From positions 63,374 to 95,373 of the forward strand of contig NZ_JAILWC010000004.1 of NCBI RefSeq assembly GCF_025699125.1: DNA of 32,000 nucleotides. The letters are read 5' to 3'. Source of the DNA: Nitrosopumilus sp. (GTDB lineage Archaea; Thermoproteota; Nitrososphaeria; Nitrososphaerales; Nitrosopumilaceae). Both the position numbers and the translations under genes were made by a program. Under the pieces are notes generated by a model that was not told where the DNA came from, ran no database searches, and saw only the letters and a list, made by a program, of their open reading frames with translations. This document shows positions 4,229 through 12,373 of the stretch, one piece after another (within the stretch, counting starts at the first letter, position 1; each line of letters begins with the position of its first letter).

Positions 4229-4329
4229 TGCAGAGGGTGGGATTTGAACCCACGAACTCCTGAGAGAAGGGATTTCCTATTATGAAGATCTTGAGTCCCT
4301 CTCGGTTGACCGGGCTTCGATACCTCTGC
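4229..4329 (-). tRNA. tRNA-Leu(CAA) with a ~16-nt intron in the anticodon loop
   Basis: Hand-folded on the reverse strand: acceptor GCAGAGG/CCTCTGC, D stem TCG/CGA, anticodon stem AGGGA/TCCCT, loop CTCAAG[intron ~4273-4289]A. Long variable arm CTCTCAGGAGTTC (class II), T arm GTGGG-TTCAAAT-CCCAC, discriminator A, no encoded CCA. Confidence 0.85.
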
Positions 4330-4449: not shown

Positions 4450-4764
4450 ATGACAGAATTCATACCAATTTCACAAGCAAAAAAAATGCGAAGTGGAGTT
4501 AATGTAAACGCCCAAGTAAAAAGCAAAGGAGATCCAAGAACTGTAAATCTCAAAAGTGGAGGAACAGTGGATGTCTGTGATGCAATAATTGCTAACGGTG
4601 AAACAGAAGATGACCAAATGAAGCTCACTTTGTGGGGAGACGATATCAAGGCAGTCAATGTTGGAGATACTGTTGTTATCACAAACGGATATACAAATGA
4701 GTTTAAAGGTGAAGTATCCCTAACCAAAGGCAAATTTGGTCAAATGGAAATAAATCCTCAATAA
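4450..4764 (+). CDS. Single OB-fold nucleic-acid-binding protein (SSB/RPA-like)
   Basis: Size and pattern match a single OB fold (..VNVNAQV..PRTV....GGTVDVCDAIIANGETEDDQMKLTLWGDD...VGDTVVITNGYTNEFKGEVSLT). A TATA-like TTATAAT at 4419-4425 lies 31 bp upstream of the ATG. Confidence 0.6.
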   Translation: MTEFIPISQAKKMRSGVNVNAQVKSKGDPRTVNLKSGGTVDVCDAIIANGETEDDQMKLTLWGDDIKAVNVGDTVVITNGYTNEFKGEVSLTKGKFGQMEINPQ

Positions 4765-4788
4765 TTTTACATTTTTTCATAATAAATT

Positions 4789-4809
4789 CCTAGAATTATA
4801 GATTCTAGG
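4789..4809. repeat. Perfect 8-bp inverted repeat with 5-nt loop (CCTAGAAT-tatag-ATTCTAGG)
   Basis: Read directly. Lies 25 bp after the OB-fold gene stop, following a T6 run at 4773-4778, and just upstream of the recombinase remnant. Confidence 0.6.
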
Positions 4810-4823
4810 TATGTCTATAGAAA

Positions 4824-5168
4824 ATGGTGATAACTTTTCACACATATCAGAAAAGAAAATACATGGATTCTACCCCTAGATGTTACATTCTTTTTGAAAA
4901 TTTTTGCAAATCAAAAAGAACTTTCCAAACATACAAGAAAACATTAGACTTGTTTTTGAGTTGGTCTAACAAGGATTATGAATCGTTTGTTCTTTTGTCA
5001 GAATTTGAGAAAAATGAACTAATACAAGATTGTATGATTCATCTTAGAAAGAGGATAAAATTCTATGGATGTTAGCCCTAATTCATGCCTAATTATCTAA
5101 CAGGAGTATTCAAGGTCCTAAAAGTAAATCAATGCAATTACAGAAATAACGGATCCGAGTTTTTTTAG
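4824..5168 (+). pseudogene. Remnant of a tyrosine recombinase/integrase N-terminal (SAM-like core-binding) domain
   Basis: ..KSKRTFQTYKKTLDLFLSW...LIQDCMIHLRKRIKFYGC*P*FMPNYLTGVFKVLKVN.. resembles the XerA/phage-integrase N-domain pattern (S.nT...Y...L..F..W ..... yl...G.SP.s.n..l..l..f.k). The same frame continues through two in-frame stops (TAG 5073, TAA 5079). No catalytic domain follows. Confidence 0.4.
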
Positions 5169-5179
5169 AAGCACATGAT

Positions 5180-5201
5180 AAAACAAACAAATTTTTGTTT
5201 T
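5180..5201. terminator. A/T-rich hairpin between convergent genes (AAAACAAA-caaatt-TTTGTTTT)
   Basis: An 8-bp inverted repeat flanked by T/A runs, about 20 bp downstream of the stop of the minus-strand coiled-coil gene. It is weak in energy terms. Confidence 0.25.
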
Positions 5202-5221
5202 AAAAAATTGTAATAAGGAAT

Positions 5222-6187
5222 TTATCGTTTAGATTTCTTTGCTGGTTTCTTTTTAGCTGCAATCTTTCTTGCTGGTTTCTTTTTAGCTGCAATCTTTCTT
5301 GCTGGTTTCTTTTTAGCTGCAATCTTTCTTGCTGGTTTCTTTTTAGCTGCAGTCTTTCTTGCTGGTTTCTTTTTAGCTGCAATCTTTCTTGCTGGTTTCT
5401 TTTTAGCTGCAGTCTTTCTTGCTGGTTTCTTTTTAGCTGCAGTCTTTCTTGCTGGTTTCTTTTTAGCTGCAGTCTTTCTTGCTGGTTTCTTTTTAGCTGC
5501 AATCTTTCTTGCTGGTTTCTTTTTAGAAGAGAGGCGTTTTTTTGCCAAAAGTTCACGTAATTTTGAAGATGTCTTTTCTAATGCATTTTTGGCAGATTCT
5601 TCTGTTTTGATTCGTCTTTCTAATTCTTTTTCGAGTTTTTGAGCAGCCTTACGACTTGCAGTCATGGTTTCACGTAATGTTGGTTTTGATTGGAATTGTT
5701 TTTTAATTTTAGAGTCAATTTTTGATTTTACATCAGAATAATTGGCAACTTCATCAGAGATTTTTTTAGCTGTTTTTTGTCTATTTTTAATCTCAGTTTC
5801 TAATTCTTGAATATGATCATTTAATGAGCGCAATCTGGTCTCAGCATTCTGTTTTTCTTCAGGATTTTCAGCAAATTCGATTTCCTGTTGAACCAATTCA
5901 AGTGCCTCTTTTTCGCTAGACAGTTTTTCCTGTGCTGCAGTCACTAGTCTGTCAATACTCTCCAACTGAGAGGTTTTTTGTGTAAGTACTGTAGATACAT
6001 CAGAAACATCTTCTCGTTCAGATTCAATTTTTTTATCAATTGTGTGTAGACCAGAAGAAGATCGTTTTTCAGTAGAACGATTTTCTTTTAATTGTTTTTC
6101 AGCTTGTTTTCTTAGCTTGGTTGCTTCTTGTTTCTTTTTTTGCAATTGAATTACTAATTTTTCTAATGATGCCAATGATAAAATCAA
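5222..6187 (-). CDS. Coiled-coil protein with a lysine-rich KKKPARK(I/T)AA tandem-repeat tail (histone-H1-like basic tail)
   Basis: About 220 aa of heptad-like, charged, E/K/Q/L-rich sequence is followed by 9 full decapeptide repeats plus one degenerate copy. No TM segment or signal peptide. The start is uncertain: TTG at 6187, with no early ATG. Confidence 0.7.
   Translation of the reverse strand: MILSLASLEKLVIQLQKKKQEATKLRKQAEKQLKENRSTEKRSSSGLHTIDKKIESEREDVSDVSTVLTQKTSQLESIDRLVTAAQEKLSSEKEALELVQQEIEFAENPEEKQNAETRLRSLNDHIQELETEIKNRQKTAKKISDEVANYSDVKSKIDSKIKKQFQSKPTLRETMTASRKAAQKLEKELERRIKTEESAKNALEKTSSKLRELLAKKRLSSKKKPARKIAAKKKPARKTAAKKKPARKTAAKKKPARKTAAKKKPARKIAAKKKPARKTAAKKKPARKIAAKKKPARKIAAKKKPARKIAAKKKPAKKSKR
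5231..5526. repeat. 30-bp tandem repeat, about 9.5 copies (unit GCTGGTTTCTTTTTAGCTGCA[A/G]TCTTTCTT)
   Basis: Units begin at 5241, 5271 ... 5481. They are identical except for one A/G position (pattern a,a,a,g,a,g,g,g,a) that gives Ile/Thr in the protein. Confidence 0.95.
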
Positions 6188-6311
6188 ACAAAAAGAGTCG
6201 GTTAAGTTGTTAATATAATCAGGATTTGACTTACCAGTTAAGAAAATTAACTAACTTTGATCGCAAAAGCCATTTTTTAAAAAATATTAGTTAAGAGAAT
6301 TAAGTAAAAGT

Positions 6312-6623
6312 ATGGATTTTCATCCAAAAGACTTACCGATATCAAAGACATATGATCTAAAAGATGAAAAAAATGCTATAGAGGCAGTTGAAGATATGAT
6401 AAAAATCGGATTTAAAAAAAGGAAAGAAGGGTTCAAAGTTCTCATGCCAAAAGAATCAAAAATTGCTAAAAGAATTGGATATACAGTAACAACGGGAGTA
6501 ACACATGGACTCAGACAAAAAAATGAAATTCGAGACATCAGATATTGGACATATCATCACGATGATGAACATTATGCAATAGTTTTGATCAGTAATGCTG
6601 CATTGACAGAGTTAGGTTTTTGA
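6312..6623 (+). CDS. Hypothetical protein (103 aa)
   Basis: Clean ORF with an ATG start, divergent from the coiled-coil gene. No motif recognised. Confidence 0.45.
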   Translation: MDFHPKDLPISKTYDLKDEKNAIEAVEDMIKIGFKKRKEGFKVLMPKESKIAKRIGYTVTTGVTHGLRQKNEIRDIRYWTYHHDDEHYAIVLISNAALTELGF

Positions 6624-7280
6624 TTTATCAAAAATTTTGTAAAGTTTTGTTCTTTTTGCCATAACTCCAGCAAGCATTACTCCGATAACAATACCGCCAA
6701 GTACATCCATTGGATAGTGTTGCAAAACATAGATTCTACTAATGGAGATCATAGCTGGATACAAGAACATCAGATATGCTCCACGTGGAAACCTCTCTGA
6801 AAGTGCATACCCCAATATTATCGCGAAAATCATAGATCTTGCAGCATGTCCAGAGGGATATGATGCATCAAATCCACCCTCACAGAATAATGCAAAAGTA
6901 TCTTTACTGATTGGTACTGGAAACGGGGCCCCCTCATACTCAAAATCAGGCCTATCTCTATCCACCCCACATTTGATATATCCTGTAAGAAGGGTGGAAA
7001 TAACAATCAGGATCATCAGAGTAATCCCAATCCTACGAGTTTTTGGAATTAATAACATTAGAATTCCAAATCCCAACATCCAAAAAACCTCTCCACTTTC
7101 TGTAATGTATTGCATAATGATGTCAAGGGTCGAATCTCCGACATGTTCGGAGAAAAATAAAACAACTTCTTGATCAAAGATTTCAGTAATTCCAGAATAA
7201 ACTAAACCAGTAAGAATAAGAAACAATAGTGTAAACAGCACAAAGGAACGTGACCTAATATCAAAAATCCAATTTTGCAA
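6612..7280 (-). CDS. PAP2-family membrane phosphatase (phosphatidic-acid / polyprenyl-diphosphate phosphatase type)
   Basis: All three PAP2 motifs are present: KCGVDRDRP (KxxxxxxRP), PSGH and SRIYVLQHYPMDV (SRxxxxxHxxxD). Multiple TM helices. Confidence 0.85.
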   Translation of the reverse strand: MQNWIFDIRSRSFVLFTLLFLILTGLVYSGITEIFDQEVVLFFSEHVGDSTLDIIMQYITESGEVFWMLGFGILMLLIPKTRRIGITLMILIVISTLLTGYIKCGVDRDRPDFEYEGAPFPVPISKDTFALFCEGGFDASYPSGHAARSMIFAIILGYALSERFPRGAYLMFLYPAMISISRIYVLQHYPMDVLGGIVIGVMLAGVMAKRTKLYKIFDKSKT

Positions 7281-7402
7281 TTAACTAGACCTCGAGTATG
7301 TTGCTTTTAATTTTTATCGACAGAAAATCTTTAGAAGTGTAAATCACAGATTGTAAATAAATTAGCCAAAATAATTATGATCGGCTCAAAGAATTTAACC
7401 AA

Positions 7403-8629
7403 GTGCATAATAGAAAAGTCGTGAAGGTACTCACACTAGATGATTTTGACTTAAAAGGCAAGACTGTTTTTTTGAGAGTCGACATGAATTGCCCAATAGA
7501 TCCAGATTCAATGGAAATTTCAGGTACCAAAAGAATTGAAGAAGCAATTGAAACTTTGCAATCACTCAAAGAAGCCAAAGTGGTTGTTGCATCACATCAA
7601 GGTAGAGTCGGAAACGATGATTATACAGGGATGGACAAACATGCAAAAGTTCTTGAGAAATTAATGGGTAAAAAAATAAAATATGTGGAAGACACGATTG
7701 GAGAAGCTGCACAAAATGCAATTAGAAATTTACACGATGGAGAAATCCTATTGTTAGATAATCTAAGATTATGTGCAGAGGAAAATTACGAATTTACACC
7801 AGAAAATGCTGCAAAGACAATCATGGTTACGCGTTTATCTAAATTGTTTGATCTTTGTGTTTTAGATTCATTTCCCAGTGCTCACAGATCACACCCATCA
7901 ATTGTGGGATTTCCACAAGTTTTACCTGCATGTGCAGGAAGAATAGTAGAAAGAGAAGTAAAAAATCTAGATGAAATTATGACCGTAGCCAAGGCACCGC
8001 ATGTTATAGTTCTTGGAGGCTCCAAAGTTCCAGACAGATTAGAGGCGATCAAATTATTGATTCAGAACGGAAGAGCAGATCATGTTTTGCTAACAGGAGT
8101 AATTGCTAATGTGTTTATGCGCGCTCAGGCCAGAATCAAATCTCCCCTAGGAATTAAAAGAGAAGACGAAGTCGTATCAAAAGCTCATGCGTTAATAGGT
8201 GAATATCCAGATGTGTTTGCCACTCCAGTAGATATTGCAATTGACAAGGATGGTGCAAGAGTGGAGATGGATGTAAGAGAGATTGCCAAAACAGATAAAA
8301 TTTATGATTTGGGTCCAAAAACAGTAGAGTATTATTCAAAATTGATTGCAGGCGCAGGAACTGTCTTTATCAGTGGACCTGCAGGATTTTTTGAAAAAGA
8401 AAATTTCAGTTATGGAACAAAAGCATTACTTGATTCAGTTGCAAACTCAATGGCAACTACAATTGTGAGTGGAGGACATTTAACTTCAGTTCTAAAAAAA
8501 TTAGGATTGGCGGAAAAAATTGATCATATAAGTACTGCAGGTGGTGCATTAGTGCTTTATCTCACAGGAGAAAAATTACCAATGATCAAAGCTCTTGAAG
8601 ATGCAGCAACAAAATACAGATCTAAATAG
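7403..8629 (+). CDS. pgk: Phosphoglycerate kinase (archaeal type)
   Basis: FLRVDMNCPI and ASHQGR substrate-binding blocks, a C-terminal GGG..-type nucleotide-binding region (ISTAGGALV), and 408 aa length. GTG start. Confidence 0.9.
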   Translation: MHNRKVVKVLTLDDFDLKGKTVFLRVDMNCPIDPDSMEISGTKRIEEAIETLQSLKEAKVVVASHQGRVGNDDYTGMDKHAKVLEKLMGKKIKYVEDTIGEAAQNAIRNLHDGEILLLDNLRLCAEENYEFTPENAAKTIMVTRLSKLFDLCVLDSFPSAHRSHPSIVGFPQVLPACAGRIVEREVKNLDEIMTVAKAPHVIVLGGSKVPDRLEAIKLLIQNGRADHVLLTGVIANVFMRAQARIKSPLGIKREDEVVSKAHALIGEYPDVFATPVDIAIDKDGARVEMDVREIAKTDKIYDLGPKTVEYYSKLIAGAGTVFISGPAGFFEKENFSYGTKALLDSVANSMATTIVSGGHLTSVLKKLGLAEKIDHISTAGGALVLYLTGEKLPMIKALEDAATKYRSK

Positions 8630-8969
8630 AAGATTTACAAGAAGTGTTTGGACAGATTCTTTCTTCAGATATTCCAAGATGAACATCATGGTTACACGAA
8701 TTACAATGAAACTTTTCTACAGGATCAAATAGCTTCATCCATATTGTGGTAAAATTCTGAGCAATATTTCTTACAAGACCTGAATCACAAAGTTCATTAA
8801 AAAAAGATTCAGTATCATCAACTATCCAAGAAGGATCAAGATCACCATTTTCTTTTATGATTTCAAAAATTTCATCGTTTGTAAATTTACCATCAGGATC
8901 ATTGAATTTTTCAAAAATTATTTTTCGAATTTGTAATGAGATTGGGATGGTGGGAGTAAAATCACTCAT
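8622..8969 (-). CDS. Hypothetical protein with a C-terminal zinc ribbon; last gene of the suf operon
   Basis: C-terminal CNSC-x17-CPNTSC. It starts 2 nt after the sufU stop, and its stop region overlaps the pgk stop convergently. Confidence 0.5.
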   Translation of the reverse strand: MSDFTPTIPISLQIRKIIFEKFNDPDGKFTNDEIFEIIKENGDLDPSWIVDDTESFFNELCDSGLVRNIAQNFTTIWMKLFDPVEKFHCNSCNHDVHLGISEERICPNTSCKSSI

Positions 8970-8970
8970 A

Positions 8971-9414
8971 CTAGTACAGATTTGCTGCCTCTTCTTTTAG
9001 TTTATCTACATCAGAAGTATCTTCCAGATGTTTTCCAATGTATGTGTAAAGGGCAGATTTTAGTACCTTAAGAGAAAGCAAGGCACATTTTATACGAACA
9101 GCCTGGAGATGTTCAAGACCAAGTTCACTCAAGACATCATTTTTCTCAATTGCTCTTGCTTCATCAAGAGTTTTACCTTTTGTAATTTCAGTTAATACCG
9201 AAGAGCAGGCCATGCAAATTGCACATCCTTTTCCATGAAATTTGATATCGCTGATTTTGTTCTCATCAATTTTCATGTCAATGTCTATGCTATCACCACA
9301 TAGTGGATTTGAATCATGAAAAGTGACATCAGGATTTTCAATTTCTCCATAGTTGATCGGATTTCTAGAGTAATCCACAATCATTTCATGATAAATGTCT
9401 GCATTGCCACTCAT
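8971..9414 (-). CDS. sufU: SufU/IscU-type Fe-S scaffold / sulfur acceptor (NifU N-terminal domain)
   Basis: Conserved cysteines in NPLCGD, GKGCAICMAC and RIKCALL. Four-nt overlap with sufS. Confidence 0.8.
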   Translation of the reverse strand: MSGNADIYHEMIVDYSRNPINYGEIENPDVTFHDSNPLCGDSIDIDMKIDENKISDIKFHGKGCAICMACSSVLTEITKGKTLDEARAIEKNDVLSELGLEHLQAVRIKCALLSLKVLKSALYTYIGKHLEDTSDVDKLKEEAANLY

Positions 9415-10655
9415 AATTTGAACACCTTCGCTACAATATTTAATGAATTTACAAGAATGTCAACATCCTCCTTAGTATTGTAAATGTAAAAACTTGCCCT
9501 CGATGTAGCTGCAACGTTTAGGCGCTCCATTAACACTTGGGCACAGTGATGTCCAGAACGAACTGCGATTCCCTCCTCATCAATAATTTGAGCTACATCA
9601 TGCGGGTGAACATCTGCAAAATTAAAGGAAATAACACCACCACGTTTTGACATGTCTTGTGTACCATAGATATGAAGTCCTTTAACTGCAGATAATTTTT
9701 CTAGAGCATATTTTGTTAACTCAATTTCATGTTCTCGTATGTTGTCCATTCCAATTTTTGTAAGATAATCAATTGCAGCTCCAAACCCAATTACATCTGC
9801 AATGTTTGGAGTTCCCGCTTCAAATTTGTATGGCAAATCATTCCAAGTAGTTTCATACTTGTGAACTTCTCTGATCATATCGCCACCTCCATGGAATGGA
9901 ATCATTGTTTCCAAGACAGATTTTCTAACCCATAAAACACCAATTCCTGTTGGACCTAGCATCTTATGCCCAGAAAACGCAAAAAAGTCACATCCTAATT
10001 TTTCAATATCAACTTTCATGTGAGGCACTGCCTGGGCACCATCAATTAAGGTAAGAACACCTGCAGCCTTGCATTTTTCAATTATCTTTTCAGAGTTAGT
10101 AATAGTTCCAAGAACATTTGACATCAAACTAAATGTTACAAGTTTGACTTTACCTGTTGCAAGATATTTATCAAGATCATCCAAGATCAATTCCCCATTA
10201 TCATCCATTCCAATGTATTCTAATTTGGCATGTTTTTCTTGTGTAAGAAGTTGCCATGGAACGATATTGCTATGATGCTCATATTCAGTAGTAACAATAA
10301 TGTCACCTTCTTTGATATGAGGCCGCCCCCATGAATAAGCAACAAGATTAATTGCTTCAGTAGTACCTCTAACAAAAATAATTTCTTGACGATCTTTAAT
10401 ATTGATAAAATTTGCAATTTTATCTCTAGTTGCCTCATAGGCCTCAGTGGCTTCTTCAGCTAGTGCATAAACTGCTCTGTGAATATTTGCGTTATGATGC
10501 TGGTAATAATCAGTAATTGCATCAATTACCTGATTTGGTTTTTGTGTAGTTGAAGCATTGTCAAGATAAACAAGTTGTTTGTTATCTCTAACAGTCCTTT
10601 CAAGTATTGGAAAATCTTTCCTTATATTTTCAAATAAAGATTCAGTACTTTGCAT
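9411..10655 (-). CDS. sufS: Cysteine desulfurase, SufS class
   Basis: PLP-lysine block FSGHKMLGPTGIG and catalytic-cysteine block RSGHHCAQ. 414 aa. Confidence 0.9.
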   Translation of the reverse strand: MQSTESLFENIRKDFPILERTVRDNKQLVYLDNASTTQKPNQVIDAITDYYQHHNANIHRAVYALAEEATEAYEATRDKIANFINIKDRQEIIFVRGTTEAINLVAYSWGRPHIKEGDIIVTTEYEHHSNIVPWQLLTQEKHAKLEYIGMDDNGELILDDLDKYLATGKVKLVTFSLMSNVLGTITNSEKIIEKCKAAGVLTLIDGAQAVPHMKVDIEKLGCDFFAFSGHKMLGPTGIGVLWVRKSVLETMIPFHGGGDMIREVHKYETTWNDLPYKFEAGTPNIADVIGFGAAIDYLTKIGMDNIREHEIELTKYALEKLSAVKGLHIYGTQDMSKRGGVISFNFADVHPHDVAQIIDEEGIAVRSGHHCAQVLMERLNVAATSRASFYIYNTKEDVDILVNSLNIVAKVFKL

Positions 10656-10658
10656 ATC

Positions 10659-10976
10659 TTAAAGCTCCACGTAAATTTCGCTGGCATCTATTTTAACATT
10701 GTATACTTTGAGAGGGATTTCGGCAGGAAGATTTTGTGGTTTTCCATTCTCCAAATTAAAAACAGAGAGATGTAATGGACATCGAACACCTTCGTCACTA
10801 AGAAAACCTGTTGAAAGATCTGCATCAGCATGAGTACAGATTAAATCAGTTGCATGAATTTTTCCTTTAAGATTAGCGAGTAGTAATTTTTTATCACCAT
10901 GGACAAACCTGAAAAGTTGTCCTTCTTTCACCTGTTCCAAATTACAAGCTTTTACCCATTCTGACAAAATTATCAC
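10659..10976 (-). CDS. Rieske-type [2Fe-2S] ferredoxin-like protein
   Basis: Rieske signature CTH-x16-CPLH in a 105-aa protein. Four-nt overlap with sufD. Confidence 0.8.
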   Translation of the reverse strand: MIILSEWVKACNLEQVKEGQLFRFVHGDKKLLLANLKGKIHATDLICTHADADLSTGFLSDEGVRCPLHLSVFNLENGKPQNLPAEIPLKVYNVKIDASEIYVEL

Positions 10977-12373
10977 CGATACTTGTAGTGTTGTTCAATC
11001 TCTGCGTCTTCATTATAACGTGTCTCCTCTATTTCAACAAACTTGGCTAATTCTGCATCAGTGTTAATTGTGAGTTCACGGTTTTCCCATTTAGATTCAA
11101 TTAGATATGCAATCCATGCTCTTACTTGGAATGACATTTTCCTGGAAAGGGGCTCTAAGAATCCTTCAACAATAGTTCTTTCTGCCTCTTCATGAGTAAG
11201 GCATCTAGTTTGAAGATAAAATATTTGTTCTTCGTCAATTTGTGCTACAGAAGCAGAGTGTGTGGCTTTTACATCATTTGTAAAGATCTCCAATCCCGGA
11301 ATTGCGTCAGATTTTGCATCTTTATCTAAAAGGATAGAACGTCCAGACAAAAATGAATTTGATTTTGCTGCATGTTCTTTAATTCTAATCATTCCTTTGA
11401 AAAGAGATTTTGATTTGTTTCTAAGAATTGATTTTTCAACGACTCTAGCTTCAGTAGATGGGCTTTCATGATTAACATTAGTTTGTATATCAAATGATTG
11501 TTCATCATTTCCAAATATTACTTCAGAATCATTAGCAGATGCACCACTACCATTAAGAAAATACTCAATCTTGTACCTTGATAAAATGGAACCAAACAAT
11601 CCAGAGTACCAATTTACTTTAGCATCTTGTGCCAAATCAGTACGTCTTGTAGAAAAGTTAACGGTATGCTGATCCATTAGTTGCAAAGTGGTAACATCTA
11701 ATTGTGCATTTGCAGCAACACTGGCATTTAGTAATTCAAGATATGCAGGTTGTTTGTCGGTTTTAGGAGAATAGATTTCTTGGACAATGGCAGCTTTGCT
11801 ATTTTCATCTGCAAAGATAATATTTCGAGCAATGGTTGAATTGCCATCTTCAGACAAACATGCCAAAAAATGAATTGGTTTCTCCAGGATGAGATTCGAG
11901 GGGATGTGGATAAAGACTCCAGAATTAAACGCGGCATTGTTTAGTGCAGTAAATTTATCATCATTTGAGTTTGAAGCCTCTAGTGCTTTTTTTACCAGCT
12001 CAAAATGGTTTTGAATTGCATCAGATATTGAAGAGATAACAAGTCCTTTTGATTTTAAATCATCAGAGATATTGATTTTGTGAACGTTTGTACCAATTTG
12101 AATAATACAAGTTTCACTTCCCAACTCGGTTAGTCTTTTGTTTAAGAAACTTGGAACTGTTTCAGTAGTGGATGTTGAAAGTAATACTTTCTCAGGATCC
12201 ATTTTTTTAGCATCAGTGTATTTGTTGTAAAGTGGAGACATTTCAATTGGGAGACTGTCATAGATAGACAATGAATTTTTTCTGTAATCTTTGAGCCATT
12301 CAGGTTCATTCCTGGATAATGAAATTTCATCAATATGACTAGTGTTGAGTTTTGAGAGTGATTCTTGAGACAT
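10973..12373 (-). CDS. sufD: Fe-S cluster assembly protein SufD
   Basis: SufB/SufD-family C-terminal beta-helix region (..ATHSASVAQIDEEQIFYLQTRCLTHEEAERTIVEGFL). Lies downstream of sufB and lacks the SufB-type conserved Cys context. Confidence 0.85.
   Translation of the reverse strand: MSQESLSKLNTSHIDEISLSRNEPEWLKDYRKNSLSIYDSLPIEMSPLYNKYTDAKKMDPEKVLLSTSTTETVPSFLNKRLTELGSETCIIQIGTNVHKINISDDLKSKGLVISSISDAIQNHFELVKKALEASNSNDDKFTALNNAAFNSGVFIHIPSNLILEKPIHFLACLSEDGNSTIARNIIFADENSKAAIVQEIYSPKTDKQPAYLELLNASVAANAQLDVTTLQLMDQHTVNFSTRRTDLAQDAKVNWYSGLFGSILSRYKIEYFLNGSGASANDSEVIFGNDEQSFDIQTNVNHESPSTEARVVEKSILRNKSKSLFKGMIRIKEHAAKSNSFLSGRSILLDKDAKSDAIPGLEIFTNDVKATHSASVAQIDEEQIFYLQTRCLTHEEAERTIVEGFLEPLSRKMSFQVRAWIAYLIESKWENRELTINTDAELAKFVEIEETRYNEDAEIEQHYKYR

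Follow-up and report, generated by a model that had tools for sequence, protein, structure and literature searches.

A helical domain followed by a tail resembling that of histone H1 is a design known from AlgP and PhaF of Pseudomonas and from HbhA of Mycobacterium tuberculosis. AlgP and PhaF are DNA-binding proteins that position granules (PMC9239181). Their repeat tract is a hot spot of length change, and the two proteins are believed to tie cargo to the nucleoid (PMC9239181, PMC7590123). AlgP, for instance, comprises 352 aa with a helical N-terminal domain of 124 aa and a disordered KPAA tail. HbhA starts with a hydrophobic segment, continues with a coiled coil of 81 aa and ends in a tail of 39 aa; it also acts on sulfated glycans at the cell surface. 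DNA binding irrespective of sequence requires the Lys-Pro-Ala tail of this nucleoid-associated protein, and the tail alone suffices for it (PMC10665949).

The gene described here encodes an archaeal protein of comparable layout. It lies in a 32,000-nucleotide stretch of a Nitrosopumilus sp. genome (the window; coordinates in Table 1) and begins with a TTG codon. Its product of 321 aa, followed by a stop codon, has a mass of 36.4 kDa, a pI of 10.5 and a net charge of +61, compared with +55 for AlgP and +35 for PhaF. Like both of these, it combines an N-terminal alpha-helical domain with a long disordered tandem-repeat tail rich in Lys, Ala and Pro. However, its N-domain is about twice as long as that of AlgP (221 versus 124 aa) and shows no sequence or profile similarity to the AlgP/PhaF domain, its repeat unit is the 10-mer KKKPARKTAA instead of KPAA, and it is of archaeal origin. 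The likeness to HbhA, which was compared by description, is one of layout, a coiled coil preceding a C-terminal Lys-Pro-Ala-rich domain; in contrast to HbhA, the hydrophobic N-terminus is missing, and hairpin and tail measure 216 and 100 aa, respectively. As the highest Kyte-Doolittle mean over 19 residues is only 0.43, the protein is devoid of a transmembrane segment or signal peptide, in agreement with the first-pass annotation of this DNA.

Table 1. Features of the 321-aa gene and its surroundings (positions within the window; AF2, AlphaFold2).
Feature	Position	Strand	Basis
Complete CDS, ortholog of N. maritimus Nmar_0503	5222..6187	-	ORF list, homologs, synteny with Nmar_0499-0505
Helix 1 of hairpin, aa 5-105	5873..6175	-	AF2 block-mean pLDDT 94-98 (aa 11-100), heptad period, charge profile
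Station EKRSSSG-L, helix 1, aa 41-47	6047..6067	-	Conserved, register change
Hairpin apex, aa 106-108	5864..5872	-	AF2 helix break, invariant columns, mirrored conservation
Helix 2 of hairpin, aa 109-221	5525..5863	-	AF2, heptad periodicity, charge profile
Station QSKPTL, helix 2, aa 166-171	5675..5692	-	Invariant P169 and L171
Disordered polybasic tail, aa 222-321	5225..5524	-	Sequence, AF2, charge, Pfam HC2
30-bp tandem DNA repeat coding for the tail	5234..5526	.	Tandem Repeats Finder
Bidirectional intergenic region between the 321-aa gene and the divergent 103-aa gene	6188..6311	.	Conservation
TATA-like TTATATTA, centre ~27 nt upstream of TTG start	6211..6218	-	Sequence, position conserved in relatives
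Divergently transcribed 103-aa gene, ortholog Nmar_0502, arCOG08761	6312..6623	+	Synteny, homologs

The charged, heptad-like character attributed earlier to the first ~220 residues was borne out. Charged residues make up 39% of the first 221 aa, and the best hydrophobicity period is exactly 3.50 residues in both halves of the N-domain (z = 11.8, a value reached by 0 of 2000 shuffles). The AlphaFold2 model contains one helix at aa 5-105 and a second at aa 109-221, with block-mean pLDDT values of 86-98 that are at least 93 up to residue 210. All hallmarks of a two-stranded antiparallel coiled coil, i.e. heptads, an a/d seam, two equal helices and a tight turn, were found, and the N-domain is predicted to form an antiparallel hairpin of two ~100-residue heptad helices, ~15 nm in length. 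Because its hydrophobic seam is narrow and restricted to a/d positions, there is no sign of higher-order bundling or oligomers.

The apex of the hairpin belongs to the conserved motif F105-AENPEEK, in which P109, E111 and K112 are invariant or nearly so, and conservation peaks on the two helices mirror each other about position 106.5 (r = 0.63). The EKRSSSG-L station, located 61 residues from the apex and retained even in members of ~30% identity, coincides with a shift of the heptad register and faces KSKP-L on helix 2. Its mirror image, the QSKPTL station, might form a joint or provide a binding site. Along helix 1 the charge changes from basic close to the N-terminus to acidic in the direction of the apex, and the final 50 residues of helix 2 are net basic. 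The charge dipole amounts to -7 in the apex half, +15 in the base half and +52 in the tail.

The C-terminus reads SS, nine KKKPARK(I/T)AA units and a terminal KKKPAKKSKR, with KKKPA starting at aa 222, 232 and so on to 312, so that the nine full units and one degenerate unit noted earlier were recovered. Per 100 residues, the tail contains K42, A28, P10, R10, I5, T4 and S1; its net charge is +52, its pI is 12 and acidic residues are absent (0). Its composition resembles that of the H1 C-terminal domain, as had been proposed from the letters alone. The tail is disordered in the AlphaFold2 model (pLDDT mostly <50), and among all ORFs of the window only the 321-aa protein carries a polybasic segment. 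At the DNA level, Tandem Repeats Finder reported a period of 30 bp in 9.7 copies with 98% matches (score 549). The units vary solely at one C/T position that specifies Thr or Ile, and a unit-by-unit comparison with four related loci (L028, L029, L074 and L001) indicates that they are homogenised within each genome, i.e. subject to concerted evolution. An overlapping ORF at 5200-5556 on the same strand but in another frame, with LKRNQQERLQ repeats, is a by-product of this repeat and was dismissed as a gene.

The comparison of homologues and repeat numbers suggested earlier drew on 177 plus 129 collected homologs. The hairpin is conserved across the family; the tail is free in unit and copy number yet always polybasic. 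Copy number ranges from ~2 to 13 between genomes, the median tail on contigs >1 Mb measures ~98 aa, repeat units differ between lineages and some tails are non-repetitive. Nevertheless, 223 of the 238 family members end in a tail of 20 aa or longer, with a median K+R of 0.55 and a median acidic count of 0, and net charges of family tails lie between +8 and +71. Proline declines to 4% across these tails, and K/R alone are retained. Short-read assemblies frequently break within the tail repeat.

Identical units within genomes, the variable copy number and frameshifted tails in a few assemblies (L011, L054, L064) would be expected if the tail were a neutral, slippage-prone expansion without function and only the coiled coil mattered. 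Drift, however, would not keep charge and reading frame, and the acid-free polybasic tail extends to lineages with unrelated or non-repetitive sequences. We therefore disfavour this explanation, which we hold to be barely credible. Because the tail persists in 223 of 238 members despite unrelated units, selection evidently acts on its charge and not on its sequence, a pattern consistent with a functional polyanion-binding tail.

The gene is single-copy, and dN/dS values of 0.11-0.23 in the N-domain point to purifying selection. Gene order is constant (pgk, PAP2, 103-aa gene, 321-aa gene, SSB-like OB gene) in Nitrosopumilus, Nitrosarchaeum, Nitrosotalea and unclassified relatives, and synteny is fixed in 80 of 80 genome loci compared, also in members of ~30% identity. 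This fixed synteny and the lack of relatives in IMG/VR led us to reject a mobile or viral origin. No family member was found in Nitrososphaera or Nitrosocosmicus, and hence the protein is not a general chromatin component of ammonia-oxidising archaea.

Judged by sequence, the protein belongs to none of the H1, AlgP/PhaF, H-NS or SMC families, and probably not to Hc2 either. Scans of Pfam, NCBIfam and PHROGs with the window protein, as with 22 divergent members, assigned no family to the N-domain and gave only scattered coiled-coil noise. A profile search of PDB sequences with the 321-aa protein returned nothing below E = 0.01, and a Foldseek search of the PDB had no match at E <= 1e-3; what it returned were generic antiparallel coiled coils. 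No recognised DNA- or RNA-binding domain or fold was found, and the earlier statement that the protein cannot be mapped onto histones, Alba or Cren7 holds, since none of these matched. At E <= 0.1, the Pfam scan of the window protein yielded HC2, Extensin_1 and FliJ and nothing else. The HC2 match (PF07382), whose 40.0 bits just reach the cut-off of 40, is confined to the low-complexity tail at aa 214-319 and is compositional; the NCBIfam models for Hc2 (NF038052; 22.4 bits versus a cut-off of 135) and for the Burkholderia-type H1-like protein (NF038053; 21.6 bits versus 80) score far lower than their thresholds. Chlamydial Hc2 also has no counterpart of the 221-aa N-domain. With linker histone H1 the protein shares a disordered Lys/Ala/Pro-rich tail (K 42%, A 28%, P 10%), but the winged-helix globular domain of H1/H5 (Pfam Linker_histone) is absent in the scan at E <= 0.1.

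Two further systems are instructive for the rod. H-NS-type bridgers likewise use a coiled coil to set the geometry and a separate end to bind DNA, a logic by which two duplexes could be linked at a set distance; the H-NS DNA-binding domain has no Pfam match here, and the putative DNA-binding end is a disordered tail instead of a folded domain. Sso10a and SYCP3 are rod-like bridgers of comparable logic. SMC arms share the long antiparallel two-helix coiled coil, and the top Foldseek matches include arm fragments of Smc5/6 and Pyrococcus Smc, but the 321-aa protein has no ATPase heads, hinge or any globular domain, and TIGR02168 (SMC) aligns to the arm only (19.5 bits versus a cut-off of 567). 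V/A-ATPase subunit families in Pfam and NCBIfam gave no match. 'Chromosome segregation ATPase' and 'ATPase V', two names given in databases, the latter to Nmar_0503 and to MAG proteins, are coiled-coil artefacts; the label 'hypothetical' is also in use. Our literature search found no mention of Nmar_0503 in the main text of any paper and nothing relevant for Nitrosopumilus in combination with chromatin, coiled-coil or histone H1; in the accessible portions of the supplement text of PMC7613761 and PMC6776035, ABX12399.1 (Nmar_0503) is not named.

We favour, with slightly less than even confidence, a two-module rod anchored to DNA that acts as a nucleoid bridge or tether. The first module would be a rigid rod of ~15 nm, in which two ~100-residue helices are paired antiparallel by the narrow a/d seam, either as a one-chain hairpin or as a two-chain domain-swapped antiparallel dimer ~30 nm long. 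It would be acidic at the tip and basic at the base, where the second module, the 100-residue disordered tail with its charge of +52, is attached. We infer duplex DNA as the most likely ligand of the tail, bound by charge alone and without sequence preference, and bridging or tethering as the outcome. With this charge, ~25 bp could be neutralised; the Lys/Ala/Pro tails of H1, AlgP, PhaF, HbhA and HupB act likewise. The rod bears three surface patches that are conserved and mirrored, and it would keep something at a set distance from the tail-bound DNA. This might be a second DNA segment if the rod dimerises or if the acidic tip touches another tail; alternatively, a protein or granule partner might be tethered at this distance. 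If this is correct, the layout of AlgP, PhaF and HbhA would apparently be seen here for the first time in an archaeon, and the unrelated N-domain would suggest that DNA tethers evolved convergently.

The N. maritimus ortholog is transcribed: Nmar_0503 reached a TPM of 94 in planktonic cells, compared with 33 in biofilm. In planktonic cells its mRNA was about twice as abundant as that of the histone gene. In N. maritimus it was ~10-fold less abundant than that of Alba, which counts against a bulk chromatin protein and makes coating of the genome unlikely. In the N. maritimus proteome, the histone accounts for 0.007% and all known and candidate nucleoid-associated proteins together for 0.74% (PMC7613761). 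Marine ammonia-oxidising archaea rank among the ocean's most abundant cells, and this low share raises the question of how their chromosome is organised and partitioned. The 321-aa gene, which is conserved, lineage-specific, transcribed and clonable, is a concrete candidate for a missing nucleoid organiser.

The moderate mRNA level would also suit an adaptor. In a more specific version that overlaps the DNA-anchored rod but names the cargo, the rod would attach to a granule protein or to the polyphosphate or PHA granules themselves, with DNA bound by the tail, so that granules are spaced and partitioned along the nucleoid. Layout and charge match AlgP and PhaF, both granule positioners, and N. 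maritimus contains polyP-like and PHA-like granules and encodes PhaC/PhaE, with no phasin mentioned in the text of that report (PMC11082331). On the other hand, the phasin family is missing from the Pfam results of the window protein (E <= 0.1) and from the 25 most-matched of 101 families obtained with 22 divergent members (E <= 1), and among the families examined no family member matches a phasin. The core of the rod is an ordinary a/d seam without an extra amphipathic face, and no pha or ppk gene lies close by. Moreover, Nitrososphaera also makes PHA yet lacks the family. Taken together, we rate such a granule tether as rather unlikely.

Besides DNA, polybasic tails can have RNA, polyphosphate, sulfated glycans or acidic lipids as ligands, and in bacteria tails of this type also serve heparin-like ligands and granules of polyphosphate or PHA. 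An acid-free tail of +52 would bind any dense polyanion, AlgP itself was discovered via its enrichment on polyP granules, and polyP-like granules occur in N. maritimus. Polyphosphate instead of DNA might thus be the ligand, the protein scaffolding or capping polyP granules or buffering polyP. The neighbourhood, however, contains no CHAD, PPK or PPX gene, the conserved long rod would be left unexplained, and the evidence for polyP in N. maritimus is recent and comes from elemental analysis only, so that we consider this ligand improbable. An association with RNA or the ribosome, e.g. as RNA chaperone, hibernation or assembly factor with a tail like the extensions of ribosomal proteins, appears very improbable to us: such proteins often carry Lys-rich extensions and RplV with its AKKA motifs acts like HbhA in vitro, but neither translation-related neighbours nor an RNA-binding domain were found. 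Binding of polybasic tails to acidic membranes is known from many systems, and a PAP2 lipid phosphatase is encoded by a conserved near neighbour, as would suit a cytoskeletal rod docked on anionic lipid head groups. Against this highly improbable role stand the failure to find an amphipathic helix, transmembrane segment or lipidation motif in the protein and the arrangement of the PAP2 gene, which is neither co-oriented with nor adjacent to the 321-aa gene, the 103-aa gene lying in between.

The 321-aa gene shares a conserved upstream region with the divergent 103-aa gene. Over 77 genomes, most columns of this intergenic region are at least 90% conserved, and it contains five TTAAC/GTTAA pentamers. 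It is non-coding, as several genomes carry in-frame stops. An N-terminally extended ORF in some database entries (MLIFLTGKSN...) was rejected, because its upstream frame is interrupted by stops, both in the window and in a number of relatives; conservation 5′ of the TTG start at the nucleotide and not at the codon level counts against it, too. With the TATA-like element ~27 nt before TTG, the mRNA is probably leaderless or nearly so. A scan for sigma-70 promoters and terminators carries no information for an archaeon.

The 103-aa gene adjoins the 321-aa gene in 77 of 80 loci, the other 3 giving no match within the compared DNA, and is also adjacent in the divergent loci L081 and L082. It has 1047 homologs (identity 84-98%) and, in one three-species comparison, the same lineage restriction as the 321-aa family. 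Its product is a possible partner of the 321-aa protein; an AlphaFold2 model from 35 sequences has a pLDDT of 45, too low for use of the fold. An unlikely, more far-reaching proposal combines these observations into a chromosome organiser specific to Nitrosopumilales, in which histone expression is close to nil: a domain-swapped antiparallel dimer with a dedicated regulatory module. The dimer would be a ~30-nm ruler with a DNA clamp of +50 on each end, bridging duplexes at a set spacing or, alternatively, partitioning nucleoid or granules at division. The fast-evolving repeat number would tune valency, and the co-inherited 103-aa neighbour and the shared TTAAC-rich promoter would represent the regulatory module. 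If true, this would establish a principle of archaeal chromatin or segregation unrelated to histones, Alba, Cren7 and SMC.

The location, described in the first-pass annotation as accessory-looking, has to be revised. The gene is core and strictly syntenic, and the strain-specific stretch is confined to 458 bp downstream of it (4765-5221). The supposed recombinase remnant in this part (ORF 4824-5075) matched no family in Pfam, NCBIfam or PHROGs and resembles nothing in any compared locus. The nearby tRNA is genuine, detected on the minus strand at 4229-4329 with 41 bits by Rfam and missed by ARAGORN.

The coiled-coil gene is a conserved, lineage-restricted core gene. A search with the N-domain alone (residues 1-221) retrieved 177 proteins, every one a Nitrosopumilus or Nitrosarchaeum sequence with an identity of 60-74%, and a profile search of 1.84 billion representative proteins gave only 121 matches. 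With a profile built from divergent members, 129 proteins were matched, the named ones belonging to Nitrosopumilaceae, Nitrosotalea or 'Thaumarchaeota'; IMG/VR viral contigs contained no relatives. In 80 genome loci the gene order is iscU-like, 115-aa gene, pgk, PAP2, divergent 103-aa gene and coiled-coil gene, followed after a variable spacer by an SSB-like OB gene, a zinc-finger gene and a tRNA. The identical order surrounds members only about 30% identical, so that the accessory setting proposed in the first-pass annotation has to be given up. N-domain dN/dS lies between 0.11 and 0.23. Synteny assigns Nmar_0503 as the ortholog in N. maritimus SCM1. This gene is labelled 'ATPase V', lacks an arCOG, carries the score 'AOA exclusive' and, in a comparison of three species, was found in N. 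maritimus but not in N. viennensis or N. franklandianus (Dataset S4, PMC12448741).

Features of the coiled-coil locus and protein (window coordinates unless another locus is named; residues refer to the protein)
Feature	Position	Strand	Remarks
tRNA	4229-4329	minus	101 nt; Rfam 41 bits; missed by ARAGORN
Single-OB protein	4450-4764	plus	104 aa; resembles short archaeal SSB/RPA
Spacer, coiled-coil gene to OB-fold gene	4765-5221		458 bp
Coiled-coil gene	5222-6187	minus	321 aa; TTG start
Bidirectional intergenic region, coiled-coil gene/103-aa gene	6188-6311		124 bp
103-aa gene	6312-6623	plus	ortholog Nmar_0502, arCOG08761
Station	S43/S45/L47 (+ nearly invariant G46) facing K168/P169/L171		conservation
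Station	S77/I78/R80/L81 facing E132/I133/R136		conservation
Station	apex motif F105-AENPEEK		conservation
Solo Cas1	L001 10666-11637	minus	Pfam Cas_Cas1 156 bits

The TTG start is reasonable, as close relatives begin with MI-x-SLASLEKLV at the same position or with MASLEKLV four codons later, and a TATA-like element, TTATATTA, precedes it by about 27 nt; a leaderless mRNA is probable. The encoded protein (36.4 kDa, net charge +61) has the long coiled coil and H1-like tail first ascribed to it. Residues 1-221 make up a true coiled coil: when hydrophobicity is averaged over the family, the dominant period in each half is exactly 3.50 residues (z = 11.8; equalled in 0 of 2000 shuffles), and only two heptad positions are hydrophobic, which identifies the seam as a two-stranded a/d seam. 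The domain is predicted to fold as an antiparallel hairpin. AlphaFold2, run on a 34-sequence alignment, gave helices at 5-105 and 109-221 (block-mean pLDDT 86-98, at least 93 up to residue 210) and mostly below 50 for the tail. Independently of this model, the conservation profiles of the two helices mirror each other best when the chain is folded back at residue 106.5 (r = 0.63); given the secondary peaks close to 93 and 122.5, this test is supportive rather than decisive. Conserved residues fall into three mirrored stations (see table). The rod is a charge dipole, with net -7 in the apex half and +15 in the base half, and is followed by +52 in the tail. The monomer prediction would fit a hairpin of about 15 nm within one chain as well as a domain-swapped antiparallel dimer of about 30 nm. 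As originally described, the protein has neither a TM segment nor a signal peptide (maximum KD19 0.43); membrane binding through the basic tail is very improbable.

The last 100 residues comprise SS, the expected nine KKKPARK(I/T)AA units and a degenerate KKKPAKKSKR, together 52 K+R and zero D/E (pI 12). The underlying DNA is a 30-bp tandem repeat (TRF: 9.7 copies, 98% matches, score 549) whose units are alike except for one C/T position. Among the ORFs of the 32-kb window, none besides this one encodes a polybasic stretch of this kind; a 118-aa ORF with LKRNQQERLQ repeats (5200-5556, minus) is the tail repeat read in a different frame on that strand and not a gene. Across the family the charge of the tail is conserved and its sequence is not. 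Among the 238 members whose N-domain is complete, 223 have tails of 20 aa or more, with a median K+R of 55%, a median of 0 acidic residues and net charges from +8 to +71. Repeat units vary by lineage (KKRPA, KKKTAAKKRPA, KKATKKKSKAPS, KKKPARKTAA), and some tails are wholly non-repetitive. Units are identical in DNA inside one genome and carry fixed substitutions between genomes, which indicates concerted evolution. That such a repeat is a functionless expansion is the least credible reading beside the retained charge. When all 238 members are counted, the tail has a median length of 55 aa. Many short-read contigs stop inside the repeat (L002, L006, L009, L016-L019 and about 20 other MAG loci), and the database proteins are therefore often truncated or 'partial'; copy numbers from such assemblies are unreliable. 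In contigs above 1 Mb the median is about 98 aa (range 30-151), which makes the 100-aa tail of the window typical. The same decapeptide occurs in 10 to 12 copies in two related loci, L028 and L029. In three long-read Nitrosopumilus assemblies (L011, L054, L064) the tail switches part-way into alternative repeat frames, e.g. QQKRPHLERDL and KRKQQLRKKQP, reflecting either long-read homopolymer errors or real frameshift alleles.

The family is uncharacterised and the N-domain unrelated to any known family. Pfam and NCBIfam gave no match to an H1 globular domain, H-NS domain, phasin domain, SMC head or V-ATPase subunit. The Pfam HC2 match covers only the tail and scores exactly the cut-off (40.0 bits), and the NCBIfam models for Hc2 and for Burkholderia H1-like proteins stay far under their own cut-offs; these matches are compositional. 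Foldseek returned for the N-domain only generic antiparallel coiled coils, all with E > 1e-3 (SH3BP5, Smc5/6 and Smc arms, RipA, EnvC, Vipp1). The names 'ATPase V', 'chromosome segregation ATPase' and 'histone H1/5' are coiled-coil or low-complexity artefacts.

The design of a helical domain with an H1-like tail is already known from bacteria, where three experimentally studied proteins share it, HbhA, AlgP and PhaF. The earlier interpretation is partly supported: its architecture and its analogy are sound, its function is a proposal, and its accessory context is wrong. HbhA joins a coiled coil to a Lys-Pro-Ala tail, which is both required for binding DNA independently of sequence and enough for it on its own; the protein is nucleoid-associated and loops DNA (PMC10665949). 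For the window protein, polyanion binding by the tail is likely, and DNA is somewhat favoured as the main ligand. The tail would bind DNA electrostatically and the rod would act as spacer or adaptor; DNA-to-DNA bridging could follow should the rod dimerise or the acidic tip meet another tail, and the conserved stations would tether DNA to a partner. This combined nucleoid bridge or tether is a tentative model, its chances slightly short of even. AlgP, a 124-aa helical NTD with a disordered KPAA tail (net charge +55), resides on polyphosphate granules, whose even spacing requires the tail (PMC9239181). Granules of two kinds, polyP-like and PHA-like, occur in N. maritimus, which also encodes PhaC/PhaE (PMC11082331). 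A specific granule tether is unlikely, polyphosphate as the ligand more so, and binding to RNA or ribosomes slightly less probable still.

Nmar_0503 is transcribed at a moderate level (TPM 94 planktonic, 33 biofilm; log2FC -0.92, padj 9e-4), the corresponding values being 48/74 for the histone gene, 937/468 for Alba and 424/311 for the adjacent SSB-like gene. Such a level is more in keeping with an adaptor or architectural factor than with a protein that coats the genome. In N. maritimus proteomics the histone made up 0.007% and all known and candidate NAPs 0.74% of the proteome (PMC7613761). Tryptic digestion of the N-domain would give at least 11 peptides of at least 7 residues, so detection of the protein should be possible.

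The 103-aa gene always adjoins the coiled-coil gene divergently. Most columns of the shared intergenic region are at least 90% conserved over 77 genomes, a level equal to that of the flanking coding DNA, and stops in several genomes mark it as non-coding. It contains five TTAAC/GTTAA pentamers (6201, 6209, 6237, 6247, 6290), including an inverted pair GTTAA-N5-TTAAC, versus about 0.2 expected from the 58 in the whole window. The region is probably an operator array for a regulator. In the three-species comparison that included Nmar_0503, Nmar_0502 shows the same lineage restriction, its scores being 'AOA exclusive' and 'N. maritimus only'. The 103-aa protein is conserved far above the coiled-coil protein (84-98% identity over 1047 homologs, 51-73% in divergent lineages) and carries a conserved H-rich motif, YWTYHHDDEHYAIVLIS. 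It had no Pfam, NCBIfam or PHROGs match, and AF2 gave no usable fold (pLDDT 45). It may be a partner of the coiled-coil protein, and its gene and the intergenic region possibly form a regulatory module.

The downstream spacer is the sole variable part of the locus, and its range of about 0.1 to 5 kb among relatives marks it as an insertion hot spot. In the window it has no similarity to any of 84 related loci, and the supposed recombinase remnant within it (83-aa ORF, 4824-5075, plus) matches no family. A Nitrosopumilus MAG (L001, JAOTTS010000004.1) carries in this slot an island of about 5 kb (6776-12200) with an EamA transporter, an SRPBCC-like protein and a solo Cas1, around which no CRISPR context was seen; we take the island to resemble a thaumarchaeal casposon remnant. 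Two divergent lineages, L081 and L082, have same-strand genes within about 40 nt after the coiled-coil gene that are absent from the window and may be co-transcribed with it there: a 209-aa unknown protein (L081 7013-7642), and a PAC2 proteasome-assembly-chaperone-like protein plus a 201-aa unknown (L082 6871-8254). The tRNA, positional counterpart of tRNA-Leu Nmar_R0020 in N. maritimus, presumably escaped ARAGORN because of an intron. The OB protein scores 55 bits, under the cut-off, against the NCBIfam PRK06461-type model; its N. maritimus ortholog, Nmar_0505, is labelled 'DNA-binding protein' and highly transcribed (TPM 311-424). Almost all fetched loci long enough to include the OB gene have it converging with the coiled-coil gene.
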